DNA from: a virus
Length of the DNA: 64,000 nt
IMG/VR virus record: IMGVR_UViG_3300013126_000014
Span: 1 to 64,000 of that record
Direction: 5' to 3' (one strand)
The notes beneath the pieces were generated by a model, which was not told the DNA's origin, ran no database searches, and worked only from the letters and a program-made list of their open reading frames with translations. A program made the translations under genes and the position numbers. This document shows positions 37,443-43,839 of the stretch, piece by piece (position 1 is the first letter of the stretch; each line of letters begins with the position of its first letter).

Positions 37443-38099
37443 TTAGTTGTTACTAATAACTACACTTACATCTTCTTCAGCAGTATCTAATGTCCAAACA
37501 ACGTGTTGGTCTTCAACGAATTGAGTACCCGTTGCAGGCAATAGGCATGCTGTACGGCTTTCTAGTTTCTTAACATAGTAAGTACCGCCATCACTATCTG
37601 TTGCTGTCATACGGCACTCACCTGCTGCGGGCGAACTAGTTACTAATTTAACTTTACCTGTGCCTTGTGCATTTTGAACTTTGTAACGACGTGCACCTAC
37701 TTGTTTAACAATATCACTAGCTACTGCACTTGAACCACCGTCATCAGCTGACAAGTATGCTGAAACTGTAATAGCGTCTTGTACGCTTGATGTTAGTGTA
37801 ATGTTTGCCACGATAGCCGGACTTGCGTTGGCACCAGTAACTGTCGCTGTAGGTGCAGACGTATAGCCAGAACCCGCAGATGTAATTACTACTGCTGTTA
37901 CATTACCACTACCATCTAATGTTAATGTACCCGTTGCTGTTGAACCACCTGTAATTTGTGGTGCAGTAAATGTAACAGCAGCATTAGCTGAATAGTACCC
38001 TTCACCCGCAACGTAAACGTTAGCAGTTGATACACCTTCACCGCCTACACCGTCGGTGTTACGATTACCAAAATAAACTGATTTAATTGGACGTCCCAT
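37443..38099 (-). CDS. probable abundant virion structural/decoration protein
   Basis: 218 aa; strong RBS AAGGAG, own late box and terminator; V.ITSAGSGYTSAPT.T repeat motif. Confidence 0.65.
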   Translation of the reverse strand: MGRPIKSVYFGNRNTDGVGGEGVSTANVYVAGEGYYSANAAVTFTAPQITGGSTATGTLTLDGSGNVTAVVITSAGSGYTSAPTATVTGANASPAIVANITLTSSVQDAITVSAYLSADDGGSSAVASDIVKQVGARRYKVQNAQGTGKVKLVTSSPAAGECRMTATDSDGGTYYVKKLESRTACLLPATGTQFVEDQHVVWTLDTAEEDVSVVISNN

Positions 38100-38183: not shown

Positions 38184-38675
38184 TTATCTTAATTTGTTAG
38201 GTTTACCTTTATGTGTTTCTGCATGTCTTTTGTACCACAAGGCTGATTTTGGTTTACACATACTGTCAAACGTTTTTCCTTTTAACTTTTTTCTAATTTT
38301 TTCTTTAGTTTCTTCGCTTGTGGTTCTACCTTTACGTGCTTGTGCAATTTTTTGTCTTGTTTCGGCAGAGCGTGTTATCCCTGCTACTCCTCCGCTATTA
38401 ATTCCATTTTCAATTACTAAATTTGTCCATTCTGCAGATTCTACTATATTGTATTCTTTTGAAAATTTAATAGCATATTCAGATAGTAGTTTCTCATCTT
38501 CAAATACTTGAAACCACTCAGTGGTAACATCATTACCGTGTTGTTTTAAATGGTTAAGCCAATATCGACCAGAACCTTTATATTTTAAAGGATCGCGTAT
38601 TGTTTTACCAAAGTATTTTAGCCCTGTTATATTATGTTTTTTAATGTACAGATATGTAGGTTTATAAATAGACAT
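38184..38675 (-). CDS. free-standing GIY-YIG (Seg-like) homing endonuclease with NUMOD3-like tail
   Basis: YLYIKKH..TGLKYFGKT, YKGSG.YW, W.NL..ENG..GG, S.ETRQKI repeats. Confidence 0.85.
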   Translation of the reverse strand: MSIYKPTYLYIKKHNITGLKYFGKTIRDPLKYKGSGRYWLNHLKQHGNDVTTEWFQVFEDEKLLSEYAIKFSKEYNIVESAEWTNLVIENGINSGGVAGITRSAETRQKIAQARKGRTTSEETKEKIRKKLKGKTFDSMCKPKSALWYKRHAETHKGKPNKLR

Positions 38676-38751
38676 GCTGACATAGTTCCTTTATGTTAGA
38701 GTAGTTGGATGTTGACGCATCGCGAACTACACTTATATTTATCAAAAATCA

Positions 38752-38780
38752 TTGACAATGTATATATAATGCTGTATATT
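38752..38780 (+). promoter_or_regulatory. sigma70-type promoter directly upstream of the tRNA pair
   Basis: TTGACA (38752-38757)-N17-TATATT (38775-38780); tRNA begins 9 nt later. Confidence 0.75.
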
Positions 38781-38788
38781 ATAATCAT

Positions 38789-38862
38789 GCGCTTATAGTT
38801 TAATGGCAAAACAAGAGGCTCTAACCCTCTACTTCTGAGTTCAATCCTCAGTAAGCGCACCA
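38789..38862 (+). tRNA. amber suppressor tRNA, anticodon CUA
   Basis: Acceptor GCGCTTA/TAAGCGC, discriminator A, encoded CCA; D arm GTTT-AATGGCA-AAAC; anticodon arm AGAGG-CTCTAAC-CCTCT (CTA at 38821-38823); T arm CTGAG-TTCAATC-CTCAG. Confidence 0.92.
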
Positions 38863-38865
38863 AGT

Positions 38866-38941
38866 GAGCGTGTAGCAGAGTGTCACATGCGTTAGGCCGC
38901 AAGCCTAAAGAGGAAGGGTTAAAATCCATCTGCGCTCTCCA
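38866..38941 (+). tRNA. degenerate tRNA-Cys(GCA)-like gene
   Basis: Acceptor GAGCGTG/TGCGCTC with U73 and CCA; anticodon arm TTAGG-CCGCAAG-CCTAA; but C33, no GG in the D loop, TTAAAAT T loop and a mismatched T stem. Confidence 0.55.
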
Positions 38942-38958
38942 CTTACAAAGAGATTAAC

Positions 38959-39762
38959 ATGGCGGCTACCTTAGGCAGAAAACAGTTATCCTATAAAGAC
39001 AGAAAAGAAATTTATAGGACTACTCCTAATGTAATAGGATCATATAATCACGGAGTTGAGTCCAAATACAAAGATTTAATCAATTCGTTATCTAGAGCAG
39101 AGTATATAGAATACGAAGCATTACTACATACCTACGGTACACAGGGCCGTAAGAGACAAGTTATGTTAGACGTTTTTATAAAAAAAGGCATCACCGGATC
39201 CTTACTTGCACTAGCAAAAATCAGAGTGGACGACTTATACCTACATCAAAAATTAGTAGCTATGTTAAGACATCGATGGACTAGTATAGCTAAGATTAGA
39301 AAAGATAAAACTAATGCCAATCCTGACCAATTATGGATGAATATAGCTCGTGCTATTCAATCTCGCTGTTTATCCCACGGGCACGAATTATGGCATGAAT
39401 GGGTAGGTGCAGACGGAAGAATTCAATTAGTTAACTATTTAAAAACACTATATGATACTCAAAACGGGCTATGTGCTATATCTCGCGAAGAATTAAAATT
39501 ACAGTCTGGAAACAAAAAAACTAATCCCAATAAATGTTCACCTGACAGAAAAAATAGCAATAAAGGATATGTTCCTGGCAATATCTGGTTAGTTACTTGG
39601 TGGGTAAATTCAATGAAAATGGATGTACCGTTAATTACGTTCTGGAAAAGAATCGATCAGTTAGCTAATGTTAGAGAACTAAACAAGCAAGGAAAAAGGT
39701 ATAAGACTTATACACTACCACTAAATACTATTTTAAAGGACAAACAAAATGTTATAGATTGA
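38959..39762 (+). CDS. His-Me finger / HNH-like endonuclease with long N-terminal region
   Basis: C-terminal LY..QNGLCAIS...SPDR.NSNKGYVPGNIWLV..WVN.MK pattern. Confidence 0.75.
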   Translation: MAATLGRKQLSYKDRKEIYRTTPNVIGSYNHGVESKYKDLINSLSRAEYIEYEALLHTYGTQGRKRQVMLDVFIKKGITGSLLALAKIRVDDLYLHQKLVAMLRHRWTSIAKIRKDKTNANPDQLWMNIARAIQSRCLSHGHELWHEWVGADGRIQLVNYLKTLYDTQNGLCAISREELKLQSGNKKTNPNKCSPDRKNSNKGYVPGNIWLVTWWVNSMKMDVPLITFWKRIDQLANVRELNKQGKRYKTYTLPLNTILKDKQNVID

Positions 39763-40315
39763 ATATCGTTGTAAAGATGTAGTTTTTCATTTCAACAAAA
39801 AGCACTTAGAAGATTCCTCTGTACCTATGTGGGTACTCAAAAGCCATGGTGTTACATTTTACGTTAATCATGTAGACGCTAACATACCGTGGACAACAAA
39901 AGAAACTCCAGATAATCCAAGCACTAAAGGCAGTTTAAAGTTTAAAGACTGTAAGCTCGGTATTGACCGAGACAATAACGCTACACTTAGTAAGTTGGGC
40001 ATATTAGATAAACGTTTACCGCATCCGTTTATTGCTAATCGCGTCATTGCTAGTCGTAACAGTCAGTTCTACGTAGCACTTAAGACCGACGAATTCCAGC
40101 ACAGCGAAATCAAGTATGTTAGCGGCGGCTGTGGTAGCAGTTTCGTTATCTGTGATCTATTAGATAAGAATGAAGCCCTACTTGCGGCACTAAAGTACGC
40201 TGGACAGTTCAGGATGTTAACTCCAAATGAAAAGTATTACTTTGATTATGATACCGCTGAGATCATTTATGAGTATGATGACGAGGATCTAAACAATGAT
40301 GACGATTTGTATTAA
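39749..40315 (+). CDS. hypothetical protein with in-frame TAG at codon 3 (amber readthrough candidate)
   Basis: TAAATA (39722-39727), RBS AAAGGA, then ATG TTA TAG ATT GAA TAT CGT TGT AAA GAT... open and in frame with the tracked ORF 39827-40315. Confidence 0.7.
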
Positions 40316-40833: not shown

Positions 40834-40838
40834 CCTAC

Positions 40839-40864
40839 AAAAAAGCCCCGCAAGGGGCTTTTTT
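40839..40864. terminator. bidirectional terminator between the early gene and the major capsid gene
   Basis: AAAAAAGCCCC-GCAA-GGGGCTTTTTT. Confidence 0.92.
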
Positions 40865-40889
40865 GTTTTCATATCCTTTAAGATAAATC

Positions 40890-42096: not shown

Positions 42097-43191
42097 CTAT
42101 TTTAGCCCTGCTAAACGTCTTAGTTCGATAACGTTGCTATCGGATTCGACGTCAGTTTTAGCAGATTTATCACCAGTTACTTCTTTACGGCTTTCAGCAA
42201 TCATCACTTTTTCAGCTTTGGCTGCCGGAGCATTGTTTAGAACAGCTGGTAGATACTTGTCGTATGCAGTTTGTAGTCTTTCTGTCTGCACACCCTCGAG
42301 TAAGCTAGCCATTACAGTTGCTTTCTCTTTATTTAATGTACTTAGCAATCCATTAAGTGTCTCTTTACGAGTAGCACTTTCTGTAATTACTCGAACTTCA
42401 CGTTCTTTAGACTCAACAAGAGCCTCTTTTTCAGCAATTACTTTTTTACTTTCAGCCAATGCTTGGTCTTTATCAGCAATAGTAGCTTGAAGTTTAGCAA
42501 TTTCTTTGTTCTCATTTAAGTGAGTAACAGCAAATTCGCTAGCAAATGCTTCAAATAGGCGACGACCAAACATGTTCTCGCGAGCAGTTTGGATATCTTC
42601 TTTAAGTTGAGCTAGTTCTGTGCCTAGATTCGTTGCTACTGATTCTTTAACAAGTTTAGCACTGCGAGTAATAAAGTCTTGTTGTAATTGAGCTAATTTA
42701 TCTTTAGCTTCAGCTACAAGTTTAACTTTAGTTTCGACTACAGCACGTTTATCTTGTTCAAACTCTTTGATTTCCTCAGCTAGCGCATGGATAACAAATT
42801 TCTCAAGTTTAGCAGTTGCTTCTTGTTGAACTTTGCGATCTACACGTAGTTCTTGGATTTCTTCGGCAAGTTTTTTAACCATAAAGTTATTAAACTTACC
42901 AGCAGATTCGACCATGTGTTGTTTAAACTTCACACGATCTTCTGCTAGAGCTTGTTTCTCTTCGGCGAACTCTTTAAGTTCGGCGGTAAGACTTTCAGTA
43001 ACCATCTTGTCTAGAGCTTCAACCATATTTTGTTTGTCATATTCGTAGCGACGAGCAAACTCTTCACGCAATTCAGCGCGAACAGATTCACGTGCTTCAT
43101 TAACTTGAGTTTCCCATGCTTCTGTAATAGCAGCTTGAGTCTCTTCGTTAATAATGCCACTTTCTAACAATGGTTTGATAGCATCTAACAT
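42097..43191 (-). CDS. gp22: prohead core scaffold protein (gp22-like)
   Basis: Coiled-coil Glu/Lys-rich, between protease and capsid genes; GRRLFEAF; ends RRLAGLK then TAG TAG TAA. Confidence 0.85.
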   Translation of the reverse strand: MLDAIKPLLESGIINEETQAAITEAWETQVNEARESVRAELREEFARRYEYDKQNMVEALDKMVTESLTAELKEFAEEKQALAEDRVKFKQHMVESAGKFNNFMVKKLAEEIQELRVDRKVQQEATAKLEKFVIHALAEEIKEFEQDKRAVVETKVKLVAEAKDKLAQLQQDFITRSAKLVKESVATNLGTELAQLKEDIQTARENMFGRRLFEAFASEFAVTHLNENKEIAKLQATIADKDQALAESKKVIAEKEALVESKEREVRVITESATRKETLNGLLSTLNKEKATVMASLLEGVQTERLQTAYDKYLPAVLNNAPAAKAEKVMIAESRKEVTGDKSAKTDVESDSNVIELRRLAGLK

Positions 43192-43200
43192 TGTGATCTC

Positions 43201-43839
43201 CTATTTAATTTTTAGATCTTTGATCAAGCGTGTTACTTGCTCTTTCAAATACTTCTGTACTCTTTGATCTGCGCCGGCCTCTTTGGCCATTTCGAATACC
43301 TTGGCACCGCCCTTCATATTCATCAGTCCTTCGTAAATCGCTGTTGGATACGCATTTGGTGCGCTAGGTTGCGCAACTACATCAACTGTGACAATTTCAA
43401 AATCGCTCACGCGACCATCACCTTCAACGTTACCACTGCCACGACTGCTAACGCCTAGTTTTACACCTGACTCTAACATAGTCTGTACTAATTGACCCAT
43501 CGGAGTAGGTAAAATCTTTAATTTACCAAAGCCATTAGGACCATCCATCCACATATCAGTAATCATGTGACTTACACGGTCTAGGTTAATTTTCAAATCA
43601 TCAGGGTGATCCACTTCGCCTAAAACGCTGTAGCCACCTTTAATTTGTTCATTAATTTGACTAACAGCTTTAGTGATCTCGTTTACCGGATACACACGTT
43701 CATTGTGATTTTTAACACCACCTTGAATGAATATACCTTTCATGTAACATGACTTGCTTTTGCCATCAGTTGAATCTTCTGTAAGAATCTCCATTCTGGC
43801 AGCATCGTATGTCAAGTTTTCTTTAAGATATAAAGCCAT
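43201..43839 (-). CDS. gp21: prohead protease (gp21-like)
   Basis: GIFIQG..KN.N.RVYP, GEVDHP, VSH.I, GVSSRGSG, DVVAQPSAPNAY. Confidence 0.95.
   Translation of the reverse strand: MALYLKENLTYDAARMEILTEDSTDGKSKSCYMKGIFIQGGVKNHNERVYPVNEITKAVSQINEQIKGGYSVLGEVDHPDDLKINLDRVSHMITDMWMDGPNGFGKLKILPTPMGQLVQTMLESGVKLGVSSRGSGNVEGDGRVSDFEIVTVDVVAQPSAPNAYPTAIYEGLMNMKGGAKVFEMAKEAGADQRVQKYLKEQVTRLIKDLKIK

Follow-up and report, generated by a model that had tools for sequence, protein, structure and literature searches.

A conserved amber codon near the start of a phage gene and its linked tRNA(CUA): a candidate two-part translational gate in large phages

The locus and its two parts

The first 64 kb of the 117,787-bp virus record IMGVR_UViG_3300013126_000014 (64,000 nucleotides, hereafter the window) contain a predicted suppressor transfer RNA (tRNA) with anticodon CUA and, downstream on the same strand, a gene whose third codon is an in-frame TAG (Table 1). 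The major capsid gene of the window resembles those of jumbo phages of about 355 kb, such as Yersinia phage fHe-Yen9-04 and Serratia phage BF. A first-pass annotation, made from the sequence alone, had described a canonical tRNA with CUA anticodon and encoded CCA behind a TTGACA-N17-TATATT promoter, and both elements were recovered. ARAGORN and Rfam agree on the tRNA, which carries G1-C72, C2-G71, G3-C70 and A73 and is the sole tRNA (anticodon cta) reported by ARAGORN in the window at its default threshold. The promoter-like sequence, which matches the sigma-70 consensus at 11 of 12 positions, ends 8 nt 5' of the tRNA, and the next terminator-like site on the + strand lies at 40837-40866.

The start of the downstream gene was likewise exactly as the first-pass annotation had given it, with AAAGGA, ATG, TTA and TAG in succession and the frame open into the open reading frame (ORF) at 39827-40315. 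Beyond the TAG, 185 codons are open up to the TAA at 40313. The first canonical start codon past the TAG is the ATG at 39827 (M24), and no sequence resembling a Shine-Dalgarno (SD) motif precedes it, in line with the earlier remark that this ATG has no clear ribosome-binding site. The TAG also falls within the last codons of the upstream HNH-like ORF, which is read in a different frame, an overlap that the first-pass annotation omitted. In contigs of three lake-water metagenome runs spanning 38700-39820, the letters at 39755-39757 and 38821-38823 are unchanged (one of these runs may be the source sample). Since the contigs of the three runs show no difference there, the TAG at 39755 is not an assembly error. 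The anatomy of the locus is read directly from the sequence.

Table 1. Features of the tRNA(CUA) locus and of the gene with the early amber codon, in window coordinates
Feature	Position	Strand	Basis or remark
GIY-YIG/NUMOD3-like homing endonuclease ORF; flanks the tRNAs, not part of the candidate gate	38184-38675	-	phrog_314 8.2e-14
Sigma-70-like promoter TTGACA-17-TATATT	38752-38780	+	11/12 consensus positions; consensus match only
Predicted suppressor tRNA, anticodon CUA (38821-38823)	38789-38862	+	ARAGORN; Rfam RF00005 63.9 bits
Second, atypical tRNA, anticodon GCA, Cys-like	38866-38941	+	Rfam match 38866-38938, 32.4 bits (cut-off 29)
HNH / endonuclease-VII-like homing endonuclease ORF, between the tRNAs and the gene with the amber codon	38959-39762	+	phrog_3322 1.1e-12; phrog_1035 1.1e-11
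Shine-Dalgarno motif AAAGGA of the putatively gated gene	39735-39740	+	Read from sequence
Leader ATG-TTA, then the putative gating TAG (39755-39757)	39749-39757	+	Sequence, translation
Full putatively amber-gated gene	39749-40315	+	188 codons including leader and TAG; TAA stop 40313-40315; translated with TAG=X
Predicted conserved N-terminal beta-rich domain (FHFNKKHL...PMWV.K...TKETPDN..TKGS)	39758-40003	+	AlphaFold2, alignment
Predicted C-terminal ferredoxin-like (ACT/RRM-like) domain and acidic tail	40004-40312	+	AlphaFold2 model

Conservation of the amber codon and of the linked tRNA

Relatives of the gene were drawn from IMG/VR, JGI metagenomes and GenBank phages. The IMG/VR scan with alignment A2 confirmed 382 relatives and that with alignment A4 gave 351, the best 80 of 382 and the best 80 of 351 being used; the single protein P0004 gave only 2 relatives in the same database. 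The scan of JGI metagenomes with alignment A5 gave at least 522, of which the best 80 were used. In total 237 loci were available, counting the window and L001-L003, and they represent 155 distinct 120-nt contexts.

Going upstream from the FHFNK motif, one meets a TAG as the first stop in frame in 148 of the 155 contexts, at most 15 codons away, and TAA or TGA never occupies this place. The remaining seven contexts consist of one in which the place lies off the contig end, the long forms L002 and L003, the TAG-less L129 and L222, in which a Met stands immediately before the domain, and L191 and L193, beginning M-S-A-INY..., where a sense codon stands in the position of the TAG. The TAG stands exactly nine codons before FHFNK in 140 contexts and is invariant there (140/140). 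Codons on its 3' side vary mostly by synonymous changes: among the 140 contexts, the numbers of same, synonymous and non-synonymous codons are 123, 16 and 1 at Ile+1, 79, 42 and 19 at Tyr+3, 121, 18 and 1 at Cys+5, 71, 58 and 11 at Asp+7, and 88, 52 and 0 at Val+9. This pattern of purifying selection indicates directly that codons +1 to +9 are translated. Leader codons are free to vary, codon -1 being the same in 28 contexts, synonymous in 1 and non-synonymous in 111. The amber codon itself is constrained beyond what its neighbours would predict. Two-fold degenerate sites nearby are split about 50:50 (TTT/TTC 75:65; CAC/CAT 75:65), and eight of the nine possible single-base changes of TAG yield a sense codon, the ninth yielding TAA. 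Because TAG is invariant and TAA absent while the two-fold neighbours are about evenly divided, the data directly support selection for TAG in particular.

The arrangement of an SD motif, an ATG, one to four codons and TAG fits 138 of the 145 contexts examined for it, with TAG as the third codon in 84 of them, the fourth in 25, the fifth in 25 and the sixth in 4. A motif of the AAGGA/AGGAG type was seen 6-10 nt before the leader ATG in nearly all of 64 contexts, as judged by eye and uncounted. The base following TAG is A in 63 of 64 contexts; in Escherichia coli, a purine after the amber codon favours amber suppression. TAAATA occurs at most 70 nt upstream of TAG in 65/145 contexts, and the window has TAAATAC at 39722, upstream of the gene. 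The motif was considered as a candidate late promoter; TAAATAC is present 32 times in the record against 37 expected.

The first-pass annotation had asked whether IEYRCKDVVFHFNKKHLED is conserved upstream of MWVLK, and this is the case: in every relative, the match sets in at the first residue past the TAG. When GenBank phages were searched by tblastn, the matches in 4 records of 3 phages began at residue 5-6 of the post-TAG stretch. Sixty-three distinct full-length relatives align at a mean column identity of 60%, and the single TAG is kept in relatives down to about 47% protein identity. The tree (85 columns, 218 rows) is poorly resolved, with 116 of 215 inner branches open, and does not allow gains and losses to be counted; TAG-less forms are scattered within the TAG clade (L129 beside L150, support 98). 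In view of these data, a sequencing error or a dead gene has a virtually negligible probability as the origin of the TAG. Gene callers do truncate the gene, and one isolate record leaves it unannotated, as would be expected of an artefact or pseudogene. Against this, contigs of three runs agree on the TAG, 148 distinct contexts drawn from many samples share it, and the ORF is intact and under purifying selection, by which this explanation is already refuted.

It is also highly improbable that suppression plays no part, with M-x-TAG serving as a very short upstream ORF and translation of the protein beginning by reinitiation at the AUU past the stop, at an internal GTG or at M24. AUU is a possible rare start codon, and the codon after TAG is an Ile codon (ATT, ATC or ATA) in 139/140 contexts. 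GTG, a possible start of a truncated protein, stands at +9 in 88/140 contexts, and public gene calls start at M24 or at that Val. However, the TAG is followed by AAC in L001 and by CAC in L018, codon +9 of the window gene is GTT and its M24 lacks an SD-like sequence upstream, and codons +1 to +8 are under purifying selection and form a confidently predicted strand. Moreover, such initiation would leave both the exclusive use of TAG and the linked CUA tRNA unexplained.

ARAGORN reported a cta tRNA in 96 of the 148 TAG contexts and missed variants with unusual T loops. A tRNA profile was built from 90 distinct ARAGORN tRNAs and searched with nhmmer over the fetched +/-3 kb. Of the 119 TAG contexts whose upstream flank extends 1.5 kb or more, 107 have a CUA homologue within 3 kb, as do 10 of the 29 with shorter flanks. 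All 119 nhmmer hits, two of them in TAG-less contexts, lie on the strand of the gene, 115 upstream and 4 downstream, at a median offset of -367 nt; the linkage of tRNA and gene is therefore a direct observation. Among the negatives with sufficient flank, L142 has a divergent CUA tRNA by Rfam, and L139, L109, L066, L143, L078 and L072 have a CUA tRNA on the same strand 3.1-8.5 kb away. The local amber switch suggested by the first-pass annotation, in which one gene depends on a co-encoded suppressor, is borne out to this extent: 148 of 155 contexts keep the TAG, and nearly all with enough flank have a CUA tRNA on the same strand. In 25/113 contexts the 3' end of the tRNA is no more than 60 nt from the TAG, and where the two abut in this way the tRNA and the messenger RNA (mRNA) are probably parts of one transcript.

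The anticodon was examined by a register test, in which 137 hits read CUA with at least 4 of 5 stem pairs, 46 were weak, 1 was ambiguous, 12 lacked TCTA and none favoured UCU. An alignment of 59 diverse members shows compensatory changes in 15 of 18 stem pairs, G1-C72 in 59/59, C2-G71 in 58/59, an invariant TCTAA and an encoded CCA. Judged by these alignments, the CUA tRNAs are under selection.

Both parts are also present in a cultured phage. Rhizobium phage RHph_I1_18, a distant relative cultured on Rhizobium phaseoli, has an unannotated ORF in which an SD motif is followed by ATG..ATG TAG NESCREVIFHFNK. Its start reads ATG AGT GAG TTC ATG TAG AAC GAA TCG TGC..., giving NESCREVIFHFNKAHLADPSIPMWVVK..., and the ORF ends 12 nt before an annotated tRNA-Pyl(cta).

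Code use, encoded protein and gene neighbourhood

The standard code is directly evident in the rest of the genome. With greedy ORF sets, TAG terminates 17 of 113 ORFs of the record (15%), 10 of them in the window, in keeping with the earlier observation that at least eight other genes in the window end in TAG. In G007, a relative of 354,680 bp that CheckV rates as 100% complete, TAG terminates 23 of 379 ORFs and is the rarest terminator. Reading TAG as sense lengthens the ORFs no more than reading TGA as sense. The marks of code 15, namely in-frame TAG in many genes and loss of TAG as a terminator, were not seen. Both genomes were then scanned for the signature of the gene, defined as SD-ATG, at most nine codons, a stop and at least 60 open codons. 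The record gave 3 TAG, 0 TAA and 0 TGA cases, among which only the gene described here was judged credible; the other two were rejected, one as an ordinary gene with its own ATG and one (- strand, 71895, 'MSL*') as an apparent non-coding frame. G007 gave 1 TAG case, the homologue of the same gene, and 4 TAA cases with junk-like translations. No mid-gene TAG with coding potential on both sides was found in this record or in G007; the control cases (4 TAA and 2 TGA here, 6 TAA and 2 TGA in G007) were adjacent genes sharing a frame. The gene is thus alone in needing TAG readthrough in the two genomes scanned. The first-pass annotation had excluded wholesale TAG recoding and had recommended a genome-wide search for further in-frame TAGs; the first judgement stands (17/113 ORFs end in TAG, one gene has the signature and no TAG-specific gain of ORF length is seen), and the search returned no further credible case in either genome.

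Release-factor and synthetase genes, the other targets proposed for that search, gave a divided result. An RF-1 domain was found in 1 of 4 records, in a short ORF of G008, and the other three have none; PylS (TIGR02367) was absent from all four records (0/4), two of which are complete. The ORF in G008, a complete relative (G008:C1:231273-231590, - strand, L295), encodes 189 aa with an RF-1 (peptidyl-tRNA hydrolase) domain scoring 70.9 bits, and its size suggests an ArfB-like rescue factor.

The first-pass annotation had offered, besides the local switch, an early step of code change, and this second part is less well supported. Such a transitional state, with the first in-frame TAG fixed on the way to TAG reassignment (code 15), is very unlikely. 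Gain of a suppressor tRNA has been proposed to precede the spread of in-frame stops (10.1101/2021.08.26.457843), and TAG is the rarest terminator in G007, both of which would suit a transition. Nevertheless, the identical single TAG persists in the same place down to about 47% identity, no second in-frame TAG appears in the two genomes scanned, three of the four records have no release-factor gene (the fourth having the short RF-1-domain ORF), and TAG still terminates 15% of the ORFs in this record. Since the single TAG is kept across relatives and has not spread in the two genomes, a stable end state is indicated rather than a transition.

A stimulatory RNA structure 3' of the TAG was also sought. 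The window fold gave z = +0.98, and the alifold energy was -1.19 against -0.40 +/- 0.57 for codon-column shuffles, 10 of 100 shuffles scoring as low. As no RNA structure follows the TAG, decoding of the single UAG by the linked tRNA would be the simplest reading. Adaptation of the genome to a suppressor was looked for in the extensions past TAG-ending ORFs, which are not shorter (Mann-Whitney U test, p = 0.40 here and 0.97 in G007).

Elsewhere in the window, a 212-aa ORF at 43201-43839 (- strand) ends in TAG in frame with a 364-aa coiled-coil ORF at 42097-43191, three codons before the ATG of the latter. The pair (42097-43839, - strand) lies upstream of the capsid gene, and amber readthrough would fuse both. 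A protease-scaffold readthrough fusion at this TAG (43201-43203) was rejected as the tRNA's conserved role, since only L268, the closest relative, shares this layout, and four other phages bearing both the tRNA and the gene have TAA, out of frame, at the equivalent of 43201.

The encoded protein belongs to a family defined here by a beta domain, about 75 residues long, that bears the motifs FHFNK, PMW and TKETPDN..TKGS, all present in the window protein. A profile search of 1.84 billion representative proteins found 172 members at E<=0.001, many of whose gene calls begin at M24 or at the Val before FHFNK and are thus truncated. Three architectures occur: the domain preceded by a helical N-extension (Rhizobiales phages), the domain by itself (76-90 aa, as in RHph_I1_18), and the domain followed by a C-terminal domain and acidic tail, as in the window. 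AlphaFold2 gave a mean predicted local distance difference test (pLDDT) of 85.1 for the full length, with values under 50 at residues 176-185, and of 94.1 for the N-domain modelled by itself. Residues 2-12, directly after the TAG, form the first beta-strand of the model (pLDDT 93). The ESM Atlas holds only the form starting at M24, with a pLDDT of 0.34, and yielded no usable hit. According to these models, the stretch after the TAG is structural and the truncated form folds poorly. Generic ACT/RRM-like folds were the only matches to the full model (Z<=5.5, residues 91-169). Complex prediction with RF1_ECOLI and alignment A3 returned a score of 0.00, 'no answer', which speaks neither for nor against binding.

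Short TAG-less forms begin M-[IVL]-E-..., with Met at or beside the TAG position, and the residue inserted at the TAG is therefore not functionally required. Some database proteins (P0004, P0035, P0006 and P0041) carry Q at that position. P0155 (187 aa, with Q) and P0154 (161 aa, starting MWVVK), members of one 90% cluster, share 161 identical residues, and short contigs are the source of the Q forms. As a clue to an inserted Gln they were dropped, the closest fetchable loci having TAG; most likely they are code-15 gene calls of TAG-bearing DNA, and they constitute an annotation trap for the FHFNK-domain family.

In Sinorhizobium phage Phosso and Agrobacterium phage Atu_ph07, the domain makes up the C-terminal half of annotated proteins of 176 and 173 aa, respectively. 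The gene row in both comprises a PTH2 peptidyl-tRNA hydrolase, a small ORF, the FHFNK-domain protein and an AAA_33 kinase with a metallophosphatase. The annotated PTH2 gene of Phosso (L002 384-878) is preceded by SD-ATG-AAG-TAT-TAG and 50 open codons without a start, and that of Atu_ph07 (L003 432-881) by SD-ATG-5 codons-TGA and 32 open codons without a start. In both, similarity to the PTH2 profile sets in about 10 residues before the annotated ATG. From this layout, these PTH2 genes look like stop-gated genes too, the one of Atu_ph07 by an opal codon. PTH2 was found in none of the four freshwater records (this record and three relatives).

Around the pair, little is constant. The GCA tRNA starts 3 nt past the suppressor and has a U73 discriminator and C, not U, at position 33; ARAGORN detects it only with the threshold lowered, and it is limited to the sublineage of the window. 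Its homologue at L173 2894-2966 shows compensatory changes in the acceptor and anticodon stems, which suggests that it is probably functional. In L007 and L001, too, a second odd tRNA directly follows the CUA tRNA. Outside the window, at 67866-67961 of the record (- strand), ARAGORN reports a 96-nt 'tRNA-SeC (tca)' at its lowered threshold and nothing at default. The ORF at 38184-38675 matches Pfam NUMOD3 at 0.0061, below the Pfam cut-off.

In the three lake-water runs, variant contigs join at 39743 to '...CACCA TACAC TAAATAC ATTTTT AGGAGAT'. They are without the HNH ORF and apparently without the Cys-like tRNA, and a tRNA 3' end lies about 30 nt before the ATG of the putatively gated gene. 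Since the co-occurring variant has a tRNA 3' end directly upstream, the HNH gene represents an insertion polymorphism and is probably a mobile insertion. This bears on the notion that the TAG has no regulatory role and merely makes the tRNA, or a cassette of tRNA and homing endonuclease, indispensable through a useful gene. Two homing-endonuclease-like ORFs flank the tRNAs of the window, co-occurring strains differ in whether they have the HNH ORF, and the pair occurs in varied neighbourhoods with no third partner common to most loci, as such a selfish lock would predict. It is nonetheless unlikely. A lock should decay fast, given that eight of nine single-base changes lead to sense and the residue is dispensable, and yet 148 of 155 contexts retain the TAG, although the synonymous sites beside it are nearly saturated. 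Furthermore, the endonuclease ORFs are not a conserved part of the arrangement, and the tRNA abuts the gene in 25/113 contexts.

No third gene is common to most loci among the 155 contexts. Downstream on the same strand, an AhpC/peroxiredoxin-like ORF occurs in 43/155 (about +870 nt from the TAG) and an AhpD-like ORF in 37/155 (about +1500 nt), labels given by sequence reading and not by family search, and the capsid gene lies downstream in 20/155. A permuted two-piece transfer-messenger RNA (tmRNA) of beta-proteobacterial type lies within about 1.5 kb at 3 of the 20 loci scanned with Rfam (L068 3791-4259, L078 3519-3936 and L109 1712-2101). G007 has a tmRNA at 328174-328753, about 14 kb from the homologue of the gene, with a tRNA array at the other end of the linear record. 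The permuted tmRNAs hint at a betaproteobacterial host and at a translation island. The Rfam freshwater-2 motif RF02980 (38097-38163, - strand, 52.1 bits, cut-off 49.9) lies in the leader of the ORF at 37443-38099 (- strand) and is also found near the pair in L004, L087 and L096.

Proposed mechanism and comparison with known systems

Taken together, the sequence comparisons make it quite probable that the locus is a two-part translational gate, composed of the phage tRNA(CUA) and the same-strand gene with UAG as its third codon. Ribosomes would start at the ATG at 39749, behind a good SD motif, and reach the UAG at 39755 after one sense codon. If host release factor 1 (RF1) won at the UAG, only a dipeptide would be released; if the charged phage tRNA(CUA) won, the 185-residue protein would be made. 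Synthesis would thus occur only if the suppressor tRNA were expressed, processed and charged, and in proportion to it, so that the logic would be that of a natural mRNA-AND-tRNA gate or of a meter of UAG readthrough. The position of the stop at the extreme 5' end would be explained by the low cost of failure, which would amount to a di- to pentapeptide. The linked tRNA would decode this UAG, and the purpose may be the control of dose or timing.

Several known systems share parts of this design. In code-15 phages (crAss-like, Lak and others), which come closest, TAG is read as Gln and 26-71% of genes have in-frame stops (10.1101/2021.08.26.457843). There, as is proposed here, a phage tRNA(CUA) reads in-frame TAG in a host with the standard code, and regulation of translation has been proposed by the authors; unlike there, the present case involves one gene with one TAG at codon 3-6, and TAG is still a normal terminator. 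An engineered AND gate combines the supD amber-suppressor tRNA with a T7 RNA polymerase mRNA containing amber codons. Its output needs an amber mRNA and a suppressor tRNA, as it would here, but the supD/T7 gate is engineered, with two amber codons and separate inducible promoters, whereas the arrangement here is natural, with a single UAG at the extreme 5' end (PMC1964800).

The gene of this locus may also be set beside cellular recoding. The prfB gene, which encodes RF2, has an early in-frame UGA and is autoregulated by a +1 frameshift, the product reading its own stop codon. An early in-frame stop senses termination against alternative decoding there and would do so here, but decoding here would be in frame and by a cognate tRNA. 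As in selenocysteine and pyrrolysine decoding, a dedicated tRNA would read a stop in particular genes. tRNA-Pyl is atypical, with a long anticodon stem and a tiny D loop. In contrast to the pyrrolysine system, the tRNA here is an ordinary cloverleaf that matches the full 71-position general tRNA model with normal D, anticodon and T arms, and none of the four records has PylS; the ARAGORN label 'tRNA-Pyl' reflects the anticodon only. No special amino acid is implied, since the residue at the TAG place is not conserved in TAG-less relatives.

Suppressor tRNAs are often annotated in large phages with the standard code. A further phage precedent is Xanthomonas phage XacN1, likewise a standard-code jumbo phage with tRNA(CUA). 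It has two CUA tRNAs, and its authors read through 18 terminal amber stops and found no target (PMC5852040). Here, by contrast with XacN1, a target is identified, and it is a gene behind a leader of 2-5 codons rather than a C-terminal extension. The literature covered, supplementary files excepted, yielded no account of a single gene under a conserved amber gate with the tRNA linked to it. The locus would represent phage suppressor-tRNA recoding reduced to one codon in one gene.

Several observations weigh against the gate. L028, a TAG-bearing fragment of 22.9 kb (3% complete), contains no CUA tRNA, and the negatives L126, L183, L218 and L235 have none within 3 kb, the range in which they were searched. 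L191 and L193 retain the CUA tRNA although their gene copies read sense at that codon, a CUA tRNA in Phosso lies 270 kb away from the TAG-less long form of that phage, and XacN1 has no homologue of the gene by tblastn. The frequent GTG at +9, discussed above, belongs here as well. If the suppressor is active, readthrough would be expected at the 17 ORFs of the record that end in TAG as well, and these show no sign of adaptation. The amino-acid identity of the tRNA(CUA) gained nothing from comparison with 35 phage tRNAs, the best of which were only 65-73% identical (Met, Arg and Gly), and blastn of the tRNA against E. coli genomes gave no match. The protein family could not be placed either: no match was found in Pfam or PHROGs, a PDB sequence profile search gave nothing below E = 0.15, Foldseek against the PDB gave no hit at E<=0.001, and the best score of the N-domain against about 48,000 solved chains was Z 3.5. 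As the CUA tRNA persists in the TAG-less L191, L193 and Phosso and in XacN1, which is without the gene, the tRNA probably exists for more than this gene and has a wider role, which the gene would then read out.

As for the function of the protein behind the putative gate, the family accompanies tRNA, tmRNA and PTH2 genes and another stop-gated gene, and this guilt by association leans towards a translation-related role. On the strength of these neighbourhoods, the protein might act on tRNA or translation and thereby feed back on, or cope with, suppressor activity. A further step, conceivable though doubtful, is a self-contained readthrough meter in which the protein would be a translation factor acting on UAG decoding, with its own synthesis feeding back as that of RF2 does on UGA. 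It could do so, for instance, by opposing RF1, through control of the suppressor tRNA, or by dealing with ribosomes and peptidyl-tRNAs derived from readthrough. If true, such a meter would name the target of the orphan suppressor tRNAs in standard-code jumbo phages and would be a minimal natural private codon, consisting of one tRNA, one codon and one gene.

For annotation, the label 'tRNA-Pyl' should be avoided at these loci and the ORF should be extended through the TAG. It is likely that the target was overlooked because the gene hides behind a leader of 2-5 codons and gene callers either leave it out or begin it too late, at an internal Met. Since RHph_I1_18 is cultured on Rhizobium phaseoli, the pair is accessible at the bench. 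The pair of tRNA and gene offers a concrete, conserved and testable target for the orphan CUA suppressor tRNAs of large phages with the standard code. It would be a natural counterpart of engineered amber-suppressor AND gates, and may represent a stable alternative to genome-wide recoding.

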